Origin: Eledone cirrhosa
Lineage: Eukaryota
Assembly (NCBI GenBank): GCA_964016885.1
Contig: OZ024764.1
Coordinates: forward strand, 9,548,001 to 9,612,000
Direction: 5' to 3'
Length of the DNA: 64,000 nucleotides
In this document: positions 7,150 through 63,717 of the stretch, in pieces
How positions within the stretch are numbered: the first letter of the stretch is position 1
Layout of the letters: each line of letters begins with the position of its first letter
Position numbers and translations under genes: made by a program
Notes under the pieces: model-generated
What the model saw: only the letters and a program-made list of their open reading frames with translations
What the model was told of the DNA's origin: nothing
Database searches by the model: none

Positions 7150-7335
7150 TAATATAGAAGAGCTTCTACAGGACCATAACTGTTTCATTCGTAAGAAATC
7201 ATCAGGAAGCTTCCTGATGATTTCTCACAAATGAAACAGTTCTAGACCTGTACAAGCTTTTCTATATTACAACATTTATACTCTGCTATGTATTGAGTAC
7301 CTTACTTACTGTGGTTACCTCCGATTCAACCCGGA
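7150..7335. mobile_element. Palindromic twin-hammerhead element (family H2) with unpaired tail
   Basis: Inverted repeat 7150-7269 centred on aagctt (7207-7212). Hammerhead on minus strand 7162-7210 (gcttc CTGATGA tttc ttac gaat GAAA cag ttatggtc ctg TA gaagc) and on plus strand 7209-7257. Homologous to 63524-63717. Confidence 0.75.
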
Positions 7336-7587
7336 ATAACTTATATACATATATATATACATATACATACTTATATGCATATATATATATTATATATATC
7401 CATACATTCGTATATATATATTCATATATACACACATGTATATTGCTCTACGGTTCTTATATATTTGATATATATTTATCCTTATCTAGCCCTCTTTGGA
7501 TTTTAGTCTTCAAATTTATTATTTTTACTATATATATATATATATATATATAAATATATATATATATAAATATATATATATATATAT

Positions 7588-7930
7588 CATCATTCATCAT
7601 CATTTCATTTTACGTCCGCTTTTCCCTGCTTGCAAGGGTGGGACGGGAACTGATTCTGGCTTGATTTCTACAGCTGGATGCCCTTCCTAACACCAACCCC
7701 ATTTACAGTGAGTGCTGGGTGCTTTTTTGCCGTGGCACCTCCATGACCACTTTGCAGTGGAATGATAGGAACCCCAGTCCCTATCATCTCATTTCTACAG
7801 CTGAGTAAACTGGAGCAATGTGAAATAAAGTGTCTTGCTCAAGGAAACAACACATCACACGGTCTGAGAATTGAACTCACAACCTTTCGATTGCAAGGCC
7901 AATGCTCTAACCCCTAACCCATGTGCCTCC
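7588..7930 (-). mobile_element. tRNA-CORE SINE family B, full length
   Basis: Reverse complement of the family B consensus from the ggaggcacat head to the (TGA) tail. Confidence 0.9.
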
Positions 7931-8024
7931 ATATATATATTTATTAAAATAACAGATTAAAGTTTATTATTATTACTATATAAATATATATATATATATA
8001 TTATATATATATATATGTTTACAT

Positions 8025-8220
8025 ATAGGAAAAGAGCCAGGACCCCGACAGCTGAGCTCCGACCGTTTCGACAGTTAGATCTGACTGATCTAGCTGTCGA
8101 ATTGGCCGGAGCTCAGCTGTCGGGGTCCTGGCTCTTTTCCTATTACCCACTCTACTACCCTAAGTATTGAGTACTCTGGTGCGTTATGATCCACCTGGTT
8201 TCTTACCACATCTTCTTTGT
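8025..8220. mobile_element. Fold-back element family P1 (PLE-like terminus)
   Basis: Inverted arms 8025-8080 and 8087-8143, plus tail cccactctactaccctaagtattgagtactctggtgcgttatg...ccacat. Confidence 0.7.
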
Positions 8221-8481
8221 TATATATATATGTATATATATATATATATATATATATATATATATATATATGCAATATATAAACATATATATATATATAT
8301 ATATATATTTCTATCTGTAAATATATACATAGAAATTACTTCTACAGCACTACAACTGTTTCACTTTAGGGGGACGGGAGATGGGATAGGGGTAGCTTTT
8401 AAAAGTATTTTCCTTTTATTGTCTTTTGTTCTTCCTTTCAATCGTTTTTGTTAAAAAACTCTTTAATAACTGATTTATATA

Positions 8482-8826
8482 TTCATTTCATTCATTTCAT
8501 TTTTACGTCCGCTTTTTCCCTGCTTGCAAGGGTGGGACGGGAACTGATTCTGGCTTGATTTCTACAGCTGGATGCCCTTCCTAACACCAACCTCATTTAC
8601 AGTGAGTGCTGGGTGCTTTTTTTTGCCGTGGCACCTGCACGACCACTTTGCAGTGGAATGATATGGACCCCAGTCCCTATCATCTCATTTCTACAGCTGA
8701 GTAAACTGGAGCAATCTGAAATAAAGTGTCTTGCTCAAGGAAACAACACATCACCCGGTCTGAGAATTGAACTCACAACCTTTCGATTGCAAGGCCAATG
8801 CTCTAACCACTAAGCCATGTGCCTCC
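8482..8826 (-). mobile_element. tRNA-CORE SINE family B, full length
   Basis: Matches the family B consensus. Confidence 0.9.
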
Positions 8827-59979: not shown

Positions 59980-60084
59980 CACGGAATAAATTACCTTTTT
60001 ATGATGTCTACCTGTTATTATTCATTCTTTATATATATATATATATATATATATATAATGTAGGAGGTGAGTTTTATTGTAGTA

Positions 60085-60473
60085 CAATAAAGCAATGCAG
60101 ATATCGGATAAGAAGCACTCTACAGTTTGTAGGACTGGAGTATACATAATATATAAGATCAAAAGATGGTTAAATGAGTTCCATGTATTTTATTATGCGC
60201 ATTTCAAAAACAAACATCATCATGCAATAATATTTGTGTTTTCATCAGATAAAACAGGAGAACATGATATGAAGGCTAAAAAACACTTGTGGATAGTGCA
60301 GATATGTTGATTTAAAACTACACTATCCACAAGTGTTTTTTAGCCTTCATATCATGTTCTCCTGTTTTATCTGATGAAAACACAAATATTATTGCATGAT
60401 GATGTTTGTTTTTGAAATGCGCATAATAAAATACATGGAACTCCTTTAACCATCTTTTGATCTTATATATTAT
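60085..60473. mobile_element. Palindromic twin-hammerhead element with unpaired tail on the left
   Basis: Arms 60146-60298 and 60321-60473. Hammerheads at 60188-60254 (-) and 60365-60431 (+): ttttat CTGATGA aaacacaaatattat-tgc-atgatgatgtttgtttt(t) GAAA tgcgca TA ataaaa. Confidence 0.85.
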
Positions 60474-61295
60474 ATATATATATATGAAAACAGGGAGAAA
60501 TATATATATGGAATCATGGATCAACTAAGCATTCTTGCTATATGAACACATTTTGATCTGCTTAACTTCAAGAACTATGCCTGTAAATAACATTGTTTTT
60601 TCTTCCACATTGACTTTTTATGCTCTACATCACAGGTTCTCAACCCATTTAGGCCAAACGCCCCCTTTTGTCCCTCGAAATCACGAAACGCCCCTTACCC
60701 TATTTTTCCATTTTTCAATATACTACTGATTTTGATATCTGTAGATTACTAAAAAGTTGATTAACAATATTCCAAAGATACCATTGCAGGCAGCTGAGAG
60801 TATAAATACATTCCTTGAAAGGAAATATATAAATTTCAAAAAAAGGAATATAAATGTTCTTTTTTATGAATAAGGACCAGTTGAATTTGTTTTATTCCCA
60901 CCAGACGATACCAGCTATTTTGAACATTTATACAAGAGCAACTCTGTCTATCCAAAGAGTGCTCTTATCTGGAAGAAAGTGGCAATTATATCATTTCAAA
61001 GCTTTCCAATTTTCCCTTTAATGAAACAGACAGAATAAATGTTGATATCTAACTTGATGTCCCCTCTGCTTTGTGAGCTTAGAGACCACGGAAGAGGGTT
61101 TTCATGACCACGCGGGAGGGTATATTTATTAGTAAATGGTAAAATATATACAACAAATGAATAAGTGAATTGTAGTAGATGGTTTCCAGTCCAGTCAGAC
61201 TGCAACTACAAATAAAAAAAATTGTTAGTTTGCTTTGTAACAATAGCATATCTAAGTTTACGGATAAATCAATTTAGTTTAACTATGACCTCATT

Positions 61296-62270
61296 TCAAT
61301 GGGACCCTTGAACTTCATGGAGTCTAGCTAACTCTTTGACGCCAGGCTGGATTTTCGTAAGATGTAGCCGGAGATCTCCACATGTAATTACATTGTAGCG
61401 GTTGCGAGACTTACTGTGCAGTCTGAATTTCCTCTTGCATCCAAAAAAGGGGTTCACCTATTTTGGGAAATCTAATTTTGATCATGTCATCTGCTTGAAG
61501 TTCAATGAATTCTTCCTGAAATTTAACGTCCAAATCGTCGACGTTAGCTATGAAGGGATCTGCTACCCACATTGGGATGTCCATCGCAAAAGGTCGACAA
61601 ACTGTTCTCTCATGTTGTCTTGTAGCGCACGGAGGTGAGCGGTATAAATTTGGAGTTGGTCATCGCTTACAATGTTTTGAACATTGGCGACACTAGGAAA
61701 ATTATAGAATTCCCGTCAACAAAGATTCCTTTCGATGACATTCAATTTGGCCAGGAATGTTTTCACAGCATTCCTTGCTTTAAGCAAGGTGATCTTCTTC
61801 CCCTGCAAAGCCAAAATGACGCTATTGCATTTGTCGACGATGTCAGTGAGGTAGGCGCAGTTTTGCTTCAGATCGAGGGTTTTCTTGTACAGTTCTGTGT
61901 TGCGTCCTCGCAGAAACTCAATGATAGAGTCGAACAGTTCAAAGAAGTGAGTAAGGCTCTTGCCCTTTGAAAGCCACCTCACTTCATTATGAAGGAGCAG
62001 CTTGACGAATTCTTCGTCATTATCTTGGCACAGTTGCTGGAAAATTCGTTCATTGAGGGAATGCTGTTTGATAAAATTGATGACATCAGGGGCCACCTGC
62101 AAGGACTTGCTAAGTGGCTTGCTGAGTTTCTTCACAGCCAAGTGTTGTCGATGAATGACACAATGAACAACAAATACAGATAGATTTTCTCTCTTCAGAA
62201 GAGTGACGAAGCCCTTATGTTGGCCGACCATTGCTCTTGCGTCGTCCGTAGCACATGATACAATGTGAGT
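61296..62270 (-). pseudogene. Buster-type hAT transposase remnant (C-terminal half, frameshifted/deleted)
   Basis: CATDDARAMVGQHKGFV...HCVIHRQHLA...LLLHNEVRWLSKGK...AYLTDI...LQG, ending GDLRLHLTKIQPGVKEL...QGSH*. Confidence 0.9.
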
Positions 62271-62650
62271 TGTATTTGGTCCTAGATGTATGTATTACCT
62301 GCCTGTGTATTGTAGGTAGTCCTAGATGTATGTATTACCTGCCTGTGTGTTGTAGGTAGTCCTAGATATATGTATTACCTGATTATGTGTTGTATGTGGT
62401 CCTAGATGTGTGTATTACCTGATTATGTGTTGTATGTGGTCCTAGATGTTTGTATTACCTGATTATGTGTTGTATGTGGTCCTAGATGTTTGTATTACCT
62501 GCTTATGTGTTGTATGTGGTCCTATATGTATTACTTGCCTGTGTGTTGTATGTGGTCCTAGATGTGTGTATTACTTGCTTATGTGTTGTATGTGGTCCTA
62601 GATGTGTGTATTACTTGCTTATGTGTTGTATGTGGTCCTAGATGTGTGTG
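62270..62650. repeat. 40-bp minisatellite, ~9 copies, inside the hAT
   Basis: Unit gtggtcctagatgtgtgtattacctgattatgtgttgtat. Confidence 0.92.
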
Positions 62651-63523
62651 ATACCCGCTTCTATGTTTTTTTTATTTTTTTTTTATTTGTAATATTATTT
62701 ATCCAATAAGAAATAAAATAGATCTACATAGTGTTAACTCGTTACGGTTGAGTCAATAGTTTCAGACAGGATATACATTGTTATCGGTGAAGGAAAGACA
62801 AGATTCTAACAAGCTGCACTTGAAGTGTCATTGACCCAGTTGATGTGGGTTTTTCCATTGTTAGGATCTCAATTGCCGGTTATTGTCTAAACGCGCCTGC
62901 ACACCTGCTCACAGCTGCAGTCAGACTATAGTTATGCTGTCTGCATGCTCATTCAAATGCATTCACACTGACTGTCTCAAAGACATACAAATATGGCTTA
63001 TAAAACTTACCAAAGTAAAGAGCCTTCCAGTACACTCCAAAGCTACAAACGCCCCCCCCCCCCTAATGCCCCCTTGCTCCCAAACGCCTCCTGGAGTTCC
63101 GAAACGCCCCCTGGGGGTGCATATGCTTCCCGTTGAGAACCATTGCTCTACATTATGCCCGTTCTCTTTTTCTTTTTTCTTTTTACTTCATAAACCTTGT
63201 TTGTAAATAACATTATTCTTTCTGCACCTTCTGTTTAACATGTGCGACACCAGACTAATACATGTCATTATCATTTGATAATGCATAAAAATGCTGAAAC
63301 AGATAATAGACAATTATTAAATATATAAATAGATAAATAAATGCCATTGTTAAATAATAAATAAATCAACTAATACCTTAACACTTCACACAAAGTAAAA
63401 CATTTCGTAACCCAGAAAAAAGAGAGAGAGAAACAAAAAAGGAAAAACAATATATTTTTCTTCCTAATAATCGTCTCTTTCTCCCTGTTTTCATATATAT
63501 ATATATATATATATATATATATA

Positions 63524-63717
63524 TATTTTATAGAAGGAGCTTCTACAGGACTAGTACTGTTTCATTCAGATGAAATCTTCAGGAAGCTTCCTGAAGATTT
63601 CATCTGAATGAAACAGTACTAGTCCTGTAGAAGCTCCTTCTATAAAATAAAAAATTTTACTCTGCCATGTATTGAGTACCTTACTTACTGTGGTTATCCC
63701 CGACTCAACCCGGGACC
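63524..63717. mobile_element. Perfect 126-bp palindrome with twin hammerheads (family H2) plus tail
   Basis: 63524-63649 centred on aagctt. Motif gcttc CTGAAGA tttc-atct-gaat GAAA cag-tactagtc-ctg TA gaagc at 63586-63634 (+) and 63539-63587 (-). Confidence 0.85.

Follow-up and report, generated by a model that had tools for sequence, protein, structure and literature searches.

Each unit of the Penelope-like elements (PLEs) described here, which we assign to the Hydra clade, begins with a short hairpin, and this hairpin is likely (at a rough probability of 0.6) to be an RNA signal at which the element's reverse transcriptase (RT) starts DNA synthesis just upstream. The window, i.e. the whole analysed stretch of 64,000 nucleotides of Eledone cirrhosa DNA, contains 14 matches to ACTCN{8,24}GAGTRC on its two strands, where 100 dinucleotide shuffles of the window gave a mean of 1.81 (sd 1.59, largest 6) and none reached 14 (0/100). 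These matches are not independent, 13 of them sitting in five repeat families, namely P1 (n = 7), A (n = 2), D (n = 2), C (n = 1) and E (n = 1), and the last (n = 1), at 60941-60962, was dropped as a chance match, having neither arm nor TA flank nor inner stem. All seven hairpin sites listed in a sequence-only reading of the window are present, its coordinates being one base off because the T or C preceding ACTC was counted in.

That reading had placed the hairpin a few nucleotides past the end of the inverted copy, and so it is in all nine asymmetric copies of the window (9/9), in which the right arm stops 4-13 nt before ACTC; the copies with hairpins at 30440 and 48322 have no left arm. The distance from the hairpin to the TA (or ATC) run is 42-66 nt in 12 of the 13 window copies. 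Among 125 hairpins of the five families, drawn from the window and 98 further loci, 71 have an inverted arm of at least 20 nt that ends 0-22 nt upstream. A single copy, the P1 pair at 14263-14587, has hairpin and tail at both sides and is the only exception in the window to the rule of one tail.

Insertions and pattern matches in the window, with their parts (positions are those of the window)
Feature	Position	Strand	Parts and remarks
Family A insertion	7150..7348	+	inverted arm 7150-7209; sense arm to 7269; spacer 7270-7279; hairpin 7280-7300; tail to ~7348; (TA)n flanks both sides
Family P1 insertion	8025..8220	+	arms 8025-8143; spacer TACCC; hairpin 8149-8174; tail to ~8220
P1 head-to-head copy	14263..14587	.	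hairpins 14309-14334 (-) and 14516-14541 (+)
Family C insertion	14662..14953	+	inverted ends ~30-39 nt (14662- and -14868) around ~160 nt; spacer TATTATTAT; hairpin 14878-14904; tail ~47 nt
P1 insertion	24214..24415	-	hairpin 24268-24293; spacer 5 nt; tail to ~24214
P1 copy, 5' side cut short, no inverted arm	30381..30511	+	hairpin 30440-30465; tail to ~30511
P1 insertion	44406..44612	-	hairpin 44452-44477; tail to ~44406
Family D insertion	46229..46650	+	arms ~165 nt; hammerhead core per arm, 46312 (-) and 46463 (+); right arm end 46560; hairpin 46569-46589; tail to ~46650
Family D copy without left arm	48170..48410	+	5' limit approximate; hammerhead core near 48216; hairpin 48322-48344; tail to ~48410
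P1 insertion	53096..53290	-	hairpin 53144-53169; spacer TACCC; tail to ~53096
Family E insertion	60058..60473	-	164-nt arms; hammerhead cores 60371 (+) and 60248 (-); hairpin 60115-60141; spacer 4 nt; tail to ~60058
Lone pattern match	60941..60962	+	taken as chance
Family A insertion	63527..63722	+	perfect arms 63527-63647; spacer 11 nt; hairpin 63659-63679; tail to ~63722

The hairpin had also been described as lying downstream of a hammerhead ribozyme, which is the case in families A, D and E, with a predicted cleavage site 32-58 nt upstream of the hairpin, and not in P1 and C, in which no complete hammerhead core was found. For A, D and E the cores come from pattern matching with helix checks only; the Rfam hammerhead models gave no match in the window at gathering score. 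Five further hammerhead-like cores (6216, 18639, 27210, 54172 and 56287) have no such hairpin within 160 nt, and the motif thus goes with one element group rather than with hammerheads at large.

This group, a conserved cis-element of which had been anticipated, is, as had also been assumed, that of the PLEs: the hairpin occurs in full-length elements with an RT-GIY-YIG ORF in four families (P1, A, D and E). Contrary to the earlier view the families are not otherwise unrelated, but are the non-coding ends of related Hydra-clade PLEs; the proteins of two motif families are 49% identical, and the UTRs of the four can no longer be aligned. At one locus (L055) PLE coding remnants are flanked by P1-type ends, and a search of its protein against its own genome returned 88,572 candidates, the 117 scored being 94-100% identical and having open frames as long as 859 aa. 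A tail that continues into an ORF of ~710-810 aa is seen at 2/30 (A), 3/30 (D) and 4/30 (E) sampled loci; open frames at L060, L093 and L161 measure 758-808 aa, and in a family D copy (L160) the frame is in two pieces of 332 and 327 aa. The first three ORFs have collinear BLASTP alignments with PLEs of the same genome that are Pfam-positive (E 4e-6 and 3e-4), spanning RT motif C (YRDDGL), thumb, linker and GIY-YIG. Pfam searches found no family for the P1 protein, and for the family A protein only a sub-threshold GIY-YIG match (E 0.019). Judged by the collinear matches and by motifs, the ORFs are of PLE type, with a single ORF encoding a predicted RT followed by a C-terminal GIY-YIG domain.

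Motifs read in the translations and compared with section 11 and the supplement alignment of PMC8557442 include DKT, which is DKS in family D only, RWR or RWI and a CNC-X5-C linker in all four families, and the endonuclease-core residues CNLC/CDLC ... CKH/CMH/CRH/CLH; no CCHH motif was seen inside the GIY-YIG core in this reading of the translations. The insertion target of the motif-bearing elements is (TA)n. The Hydra clade is described by a change of DKG to DKT, an RW(K/R) motif, a CxCX5C linker, CxxC/CxH around endonuclease core E and N, no CCHH motif within the GIY-YIG core, (TA)n targets, canonical hammerheads and short units, "generally <3 kb" (PMC8557442). Our families share the DKT, RW, CxCX5C and CxxC/CxH motifs, the (TA)n targets and the hammerheads, and it is by these motifs, target and hammerheads that they are assigned to the clade. 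Unlike what is described there, units here are longer (~3.5-4.1 kb) and copy numbers are very high, the P1 hairpin alone having 31,473 exact copies in the genome.

In full-length elements the order of features is as follows: hammerhead; a gap of 32-56 nt; the "X end", rich in TA; a gap of 3-12 nt; hairpin 1; about 45-65 nt; a "tail end"; 3-8 nt; hairpin 2; the ATG of an ORF encoding RT and GIY-YIG; the 3'UTR; and the next hammerhead. The hairpin is thus the first feature of the unit and belongs to its 5'UTR, 109-166 nt before the ATG, and in four of six full-length P1 copies it lies directly upstream of the ORF. Definition of the 3' end had been among the roles suggested for it, but it is not an element of that end: insertions have it on their 3' side only where a second, partial unit begins. 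It is seen beyond the inverted arm since an insertion continues into the following unit, as the known PLE "tail". In full-length P1, D and E the tail end is followed, 3-4 nt on, by the second hairpin, which has the same build (GCTC..GAGCRC); at this place family A has a small hairpin of another kind (GCAC/GTGC).

Insertions into (TA)n terminate at one of two points, X end or tail end, and head-to-head insertions have one of each, which places the hairpin a few bases beyond the inverted arm. This was so in all of 12 head-to-head pairs (12/12), which were collected by arm seeds and not by hairpin. Past the P1 X end one observes a TA repeat in 11 of 20 cases and hairpin 1 in 9, and past the P1 tail end a TA repeat in 11 of 11. 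On the 3' side of the six full-length P1 copies, two have X, hairpin and tail, three stop at the X end against (TA)n, and one is unclear. Since the second hairpin follows the tail end in three families, both termini lie just 5' of a hairpin, at 3-12 nt from its start in P1, D and E. As an assembly-free check, contigs of run X1 were placed on a family E junction (L161): loose (TA)n ends fall at 4145/4147 (21 + 15 contigs) and 4230/4250 (61 + 45), and depth drops 53-fold past the tail end. The termini are blurred by a few bases because the TA-rich sequence there adjoins (TA)n, and microhomology with the target, instead of the hairpin, could determine where they fall.

Eight family-defined hairpins have in common a 3' bulge of 2 nt (TT or TA) and an outer 4-bp stem, RCTC/GAGY, in which hairpin 2 has G-C in place of A-T. 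The inner stems of these hairpins are unrelated in sequence and nevertheless form 28 pairs, where shuffles form 4.6 (sd 2.4, max 17) and none of 20,000 attains 28 (0/20,000). Only this eight-hairpin covariation test is unbiased, because several members of a 14-hairpin set had been picked for good folding. Single hairpins fold weakly: energies range from -2.2 to -10.7 kcal/mol and z-scores from -0.37 to -2.30, with 5 to 65 of 200 shuffles folding equally well, so that it is covariation and not energy that supports the predicted structure. Of six published Hydra consensus sequences, four, from coral, sea cucumber and sea louse, show the same build when read by eye, and in the sea cucumber consensus two copies stand at the very 5' start, ahead of the ATG; the motif was not seen in the other two, Hydra-1_Amil, whose 5' end is incomplete, and Hydra-1_Obim.

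We infer that the RT recognises the hairpin, the reading that we favour and that had also been proposed from the window's sequence. The RT-endonuclease would bind the hairpins on an uncleaved read-through transcript and would use the nicked (TA)n as primer on the TA-rich stretch immediately 5' of one or the other hairpin, with each of the two DNA strands using a different start site. Such a start-site signal would account for the one-sided tail of the insertions. More tentatively, and with rather more against it than for it in our estimation, the paired hairpins may be template-recognition and start-site signals that Hydra-clade RTs have kept since before the cnidarian/bilaterian split, a dimeric RT-endonuclease placing one protomer on each hairpin and extending each nicked strand from its own start site, with one tail per head-to-head insertion as the outcome. 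The RTs of PLEs are the closest relatives of telomerase RT, and if the dimer were real, it would amount to a telomerase-like definition of an internal template in a transposon.

To our knowledge, a single in vitro study, on one Poseidon element, tells how PLE RTs choose their template and the site at which they start. The purified protein of this PLE of Anolis carolinensis starts reverse transcription at two internal stem-loop sites, inside the stem-loop, within the ORF and with no homology to the target; the main template is uncleaved RNA, cutting and extension take place on both DNA strands, and the tail reaches from one start site to the other (Frangieh et al. 2024, PMC11167929). The elements described here resemble it in an optional one-sided extension with two discrete ends, a stem-loop at the (here candidate) start site, A/C-rich loops (ACCCUA, UCCC, CCUACAA and AAC), AT-rich targets, the use of both strands with inverted copies as the result, and a template that, as proposed here, runs across an uncleaved hammerhead. 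They differ in that the candidate signal lies in the 5'UTR rather than 111-118 nt inside the ORF, that the tail is ~75-100 nt rather than 30-40 bp, and that two separate hairpins share one conserved build, each lying immediately 3' of a terminus, with a stem sequence conserved across families and phyla.

The motif had been called undescribed. This does not hold for the principle, since a tail between internal stem-loop start sites is known from Poseidon (PMC11167929), but it does for the motif, of which we found no description in the PLE literature searched. The asymmetric palindromes of the window are the shortest form of the insertion structure outlined in Craig et al. 2021 (PMC8557442), with pLTR, inverted 5'-truncated copy and one-sided tail; that paper gives neither sequence nor structure of the tail, and "hairpin" and "stem-loop" occur 0 times in its main text and supplement. 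The RTs of stringent-type LINEs recognise 3' stem-loops held in common with partner SINEs, such as eel UnaL2 (PMC1636434), likewise short conserved RNA hairpins near the start point in otherwise dissimilar elements; those, however, stand at the true RNA 3' end, whereas here a read-through transcript would be copied from an internal start, and the hairpin is mostly left uncopied at one end. The finding adds a compact, sequence-defined candidate signal of ~25 nt, present twice per unit, coinciding with both natural insertion ends and conserved in four families of this genome as well as in elements published from three other phyla. With it, template recognition can be tested directly in a second PLE clade. 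It may explain the asymmetric palindromes which, in their tens of thousands, fill (TA)n tracts of this genome, and can serve in annotation as a marker of the true unit boundary.

One may also consider that the hairpin is read as DNA, either as a site recognised by the element's GIY-YIG endonuclease or as a cDNA structure that stops or resolves synthesis, and in this way fixes where insertions end, with no guidance of the RT on RNA. In the outer stem and the RC after it, conservation extends to the sequence and not to the pairs only, which would also be compatible with recognition of double-stranded DNA; the Drosophila virilis Penelope endonuclease, as related in PMC11167929, required tail sequence to recognise and cut a Penelope fragment; and the strict one-tail asymmetry (12/12) would likewise result from a snap-back copy that halts at the hairpin. 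New insertions, however, lie in (TA)n and not beside pre-existing hairpins, the covarying inner stems point to a single-stranded fold, and sense copies of full length that lack an inverted arm terminate at the X end (L059), so that this end acts as a start and not merely as a fold-back stop. We regard this explanation as improbable.

About equally improbable is that the hairpin serves an ordinary 5'UTR/pLTR function of the master copies, be it transcription start, RNA stability, translation control or an aid to hammerhead folding, its adjacency to the termini being a side effect of where the pLTR ends. Its distance from both ATG and hammerhead cleavage site would suit this, a promoter is located in the pLTR (PMC11167929), and conservation by itself is silent on which function is selected. 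Left unexplained, though, are the position of both termini 3-12 nt 5' of a hairpin in four families with unalignable UTRs and the duplication of the module, with its second copy at the second terminus.

Last, that the elements are Helitron/Helentron derivatives (HINE-like), with inverted repeats and a 3' palindrome that ends rolling-circle transposition, would match their layout, an inverted-repeat copy just ahead of a short palindrome near the 3' end (Thomas et al. 2014, PMC4067079, in its account of HINEs), and the abundance of Helitrons in this genome (3,704 candidates), but it is hardly credible: the motif is on the gene strand in 0/12 long RepHel loci, a Helitron family at L043 and L048 ends ...CCGCTAGT with a different hairpin, rolling-circle elements of that class have TT targets, 12-15-bp repeats and 8-35 bp from palindrome to 3' end (same account), and the elements described here target (TA)n, have 45-66 nt at that place, and enclose RT-GIY-YIG ORFs between their motif-bearing ends.

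We observed 14 matches to the pattern ACTCN{8,24}GAGTRC in the window, against a mean of 1.81 and a maximum of 6 in dinucleotide shuffles (0/100 reaching 14), and once the flanks were read 13 of these fell into five repeat families, named P1, A, C, D and E (see table). This bears out the sequence-only reading insofar as it placed such a hairpin beyond the inverted arm in several families. The match at 60941, which has none of the common context, was rejected as a member of the set and taken as chance. The real copies share one layout: (TA)n, a long palindrome or inverted ends, a spacer, the hairpin, 42-66 nt, and then (TA)n or another simple repeat. 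In nine asymmetric copies in the window the gap from the end of the right arm to ACTC is 4-13 nt, the copy at 14263-14587 has the hairpin and tail (the stretch beyond the inverted arm) on both sides, and the left arm is absent from two copies. In the 3.0-Gb genome the P1 hairpin has 31,473 exact matches, and hairpin plus tail start gives 8,774 matches for family A, 5,654 for E, 1,529 for D and 6 for C.

Positions of the hairpins in the window and in published Hydra consensus sequences
Element	Position	Hairpin	Basis
P1	8149, 14309(-), 14516, 24268(-), 30440, 44452(-), 53144(-)		pattern match and flanks
Family A	7280, 63659		pattern match and flanks
Family C	14878		pattern match and flanks
Family D	46569, 48322		pattern match and flanks
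Family E	60115(-)		pattern match and flanks
Acropora Hydra-2	about 55 nt 3' of hammerhead	GCTC, inner stem TACAC/GTGTA, bulge TT, GAGC AC	by eye
Apostichopus Hydra-1	very 5' start, before ATG; two copies about 60 nt apart	inner stems TGTCC/GGACA, CTGA/TCAG	by eye
Apostichopus Hydra-2	past TA-rich stretch 3' of hammerhead	inner stem TGCT/AGCA	by eye
Caligus Hydra-1	3' end	inner stem CAGT/ACTG; one outer pair mismatched	by eye

Eight family-defined hairpins have a common build: the outer stem is 4 bp long, GAGY is preceded by a 2-nt bulge (TT or TA), and the inner stem has 2-6 pairs, its sequence being unrelated between hairpins (TACT/AGTA, CTAC/GTAG, CAGT/ACTG, CAA/TTG, TGCTCT/GGAGCA and others). 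Base pairs were counted by script, since MAFFT gave no structural register. The eight hairpins contain 28 inner pairs compared with 4.6 in shuffles, none of 20,000 shuffles reaching 28; a wider set of 14 hairpins, part of which was picked for good folding, has 48 compared with 8.6. Taken singly, the hairpins fold weakly (-2.2 to -10.7 kcal/mol, z-scores -0.37 to -2.30), with no significant gain in energy over shuffles.

Two element classes match the geometry of a hairpin beyond an arm: Penelope-like elements (PLEs), whose insertions are described in parts of PMC8557442 as an inverted truncated copy with a one-sided tail, and Helentron/HINE-type rolling-circle elements, for which passages of PMC4067079 give a 3' palindrome after subterminal inverted repeats. 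The Helitron/Helentron reading was rejected, the gene-strand motif being found in none of 12 long loci with a Rep-helicase (RepHel). The Helitron family at two of the retrieved loci, L043 and L048, has a 3' end that reads ...CCGCTAGT; this canonical end (...GAGCGAAGCCGGGTAGCTCCGCTAGT; L043:5480-5496, L048:5470-5500) is inserted at AT, directly 3' of a 1,718-aa RepHel frame, so that Helitrons as well as Hydra-clade PLEs insert into the (TA)n tracts of the genome. As the PLE partner, the best-scoring GIY-YIG loci were likewise discarded, with the motif 3' of the ORF on the gene strand in 0/30 (1.5-kb flanks) and 0/12 (10 kb); these loci are other PLE lineages.

The coding partner was found in L055, a locus retrieved for a Helitron, where P1 ends flank coding remnants. 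The insertion at L055:2836-5102 begins with (TA)n, a 35-nt inverted arm and a 5'-truncated sense ORF (RT C-terminus, Cys linker, GIY-YIG), and goes on with a 3'UTR of about 1.1 kb, the last ~190 nt of which are the P1 arm, followed by CCC, the hairpin, a 55-nt tail and (TA)n. The neighbouring insertion mirrors it, with an inverted copy of 1.7 kb, a short sense arm and then hairpin and tail. The protein piece led to 88,572 candidates in the genome, and the 117 of them that were scored show 94-100% identity, with open frames of up to 859 aa. Of six full-length P1 copies, four have the hairpin directly upstream of the ORF, and what appears as the tail of short copies continues straight into the 5'UTR; on the 3' side, two of the six have arm, hairpin and tail, in three the arm end abuts (TA)n, and the remaining one is unclear. 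The tail also continues into an ORF in 2/30 (A), 3/30 (D) and 4/30 (E) sampled loci. The frame is open over 758 aa in L093 (A) and 808 aa in L161 (E), and in L160 (D) it is split into pieces of 332 and 327 aa. The ATG lies 165 nt (P1), 109 nt (A), 133 nt (D) and 166 nt (E) downstream of the first hairpin base. Looking for the motif in full-length PLEs, as had been suggested from the sequence alone, thus places it at the start of the unit in copies of P1, A, D and E. Since the hairpin is directly 5' of the ORF and the tail is the start of the 5'UTR, the hairpin marks the start of the PLE unit, and at the 3' side of an insertion it is only the beginning of a partial second unit.

Pfam recognises no family in the P1 and A proteins; these are collinear with Pfam-positive PLEs of their own genome over RT motif C, thumb, linker and GIY-YIG core (E 4e-6, 3e-4). 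They have DKT for DKG, an RW(K/R) motif, a CxCX5C linker and CxxC plus CxH around the endonuclease core, and the elements have (TA)n targets and canonical hammerheads, the same set that Craig et al. (PMC8557442, section 11 and supplement alignment) list for the Hydra clade. Judged by these sequence traits, P1, A and their kin are Hydra-clade PLEs. The families are therefore not "otherwise unrelated", as they had first been taken to be, but related elements with diverged UTRs, the P1 and A proteins being 49% identical over 728 aa. UTR divergence exceeds what MAFFT can align: neither the four 5'UTRs nor the hairpins were brought into structural register.

Insertions end at two sites, judged from about 0.9 Mb of the genome. 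In an incidental 469-kb sample the P1 arm end is followed by a TA repeat in 11/20 cases and by the hairpin (hairpin 1) in 9/20, and the P1 tail end by a TA repeat in 11/11. Full-length P1, D and E have a second hairpin, which begins 3-4 nt past the tail end and has the same build but for a first pair of G-C rather than A-T (GCTC...GAGCRC); at that place family A has a small GCAC/GTGC hairpin. Thus each insertion-end site has a hairpin a few bases 3' of it, and both sites are TA-rich (CCTATTA and CGTTAT in P1). Independently of the assembly, contigs of one run at a family E junction have loose (TA)n ends in two places, the tail end (21+15 contigs) and the arm end (61+45), and depth drops 53-fold past the tail end. 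The family E hairpin and tail are identical over 87 nt in runs of two other organisms, with (AT)n at the tail end; as these organisms may be close relatives, this carries no weight as conservation. Head-to-head pairs located through arm seeds rather than through the hairpin have one end of each kind in 12/12 cases (P1 8, D 2, E 2); the window has one exception, a copy with two tails. In L160 (D) and L060 (P1), hairpins 1 and 2 are alike also in the following 15-20 nt, and the start module has the look of a ~90-nt tandem duplication. Another PLE family, with RVT_1 and GIY-YIG Pfam hits (L034, L035, L038), ends against (TA)n at either of two 3' positions about 55 nt apart, and the extra stretch may form an ATACAC...GTGTAT hairpin; tails with an internal hairpin may be general in PLEs, the hairpin sequence being clade-specific.

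With purified Poseidon protein, an AC-rich stem-loop contains two internal sites where reverse transcription begins, and these sites delimit the genomic tail; both DNA strands are cut and extended, and the main template is uncleaved RNA (Frangieh et al., PMC11167929). The anatomy seen here is compatible with this scheme, with a clade-specific signal instead. In Hydra-clade PLEs this hairpin opens the unit and belongs to the known PLE tail, and it is probably this clade's version of the RT start signal. The RT-endonuclease would bind the hairpins on a read-through transcript and, with nicked (TA)n as primer, start on the TA-rich bases immediately 5' of either hairpin 1 or hairpin 2. Head-to-head copies would arise if both strands were extended, and a single tail if the two strands used different start sites. 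One may also consider a signal at the DNA level, for the endonuclease or for fold-back synthesis, or an unrelated function of the hairpin in the 5'UTR.

The same build was seen in four of the six published Hydra consensus sequences (Craig et al. supplement), which were checked by eye with no statistic attached; it was not seen in Acropora Hydra-1, whose 5' end is incomplete, or in Octopus bimaculoides Hydra-1. The words "hairpin" and "stem-loop" occur 0 times in PMC8557442 (main text and supplement), the 2026 retrozyme preprint and a paper on Octopus vulgaris repeats, the search covering neither subscription papers nor Repbase notes. New relative to print are that the build is conserved, that it is duplicated at both termini and that it is kept across phyla.

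Rfam finds nothing in the window at gathering thresholds, and the 150 matches listed at E up to 5 are microRNA-type models on palindromes and TA repeats, all under their own cut-offs. Well-formed hammerhead cores with a helix II of 4-5 bp are present at 54172-54203 (+) and 56250-56287 (-) (CTGATGAG..CGAAAC and CTGAAGAG..CGAAAC); the ACTC..GAGTRC hairpin is absent within 160 nt of both, and they probably belong to another PLE/retrozyme lineage. A family D-like core at 6216 (-), with no hairpin nearby, may represent an arm that stops at the X end, the TA-rich arm end just 5' of hairpin 1, or a truncated copy. A near-perfect 116-nt palindrome at 27338-27453 (70.6 bits against the Rfam model MIR4387, gathering 84) has CTGATGAG on both strands and may be another ribozyme-bearing head-to-head insertion, though without the hairpin. 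Labelled by eye, an open frame with LINE-type RT motifs at 2-1255 (+) runs past the window start, and a 192-aa open frame at 61716-62294 (-) resembles a hAT-type transposase remnant. Among the several low-complexity arrays of the window is a long tandem array at 33360-35843, with QDNTGQYRTV-type repeats, that has more than one reading frame open throughout.
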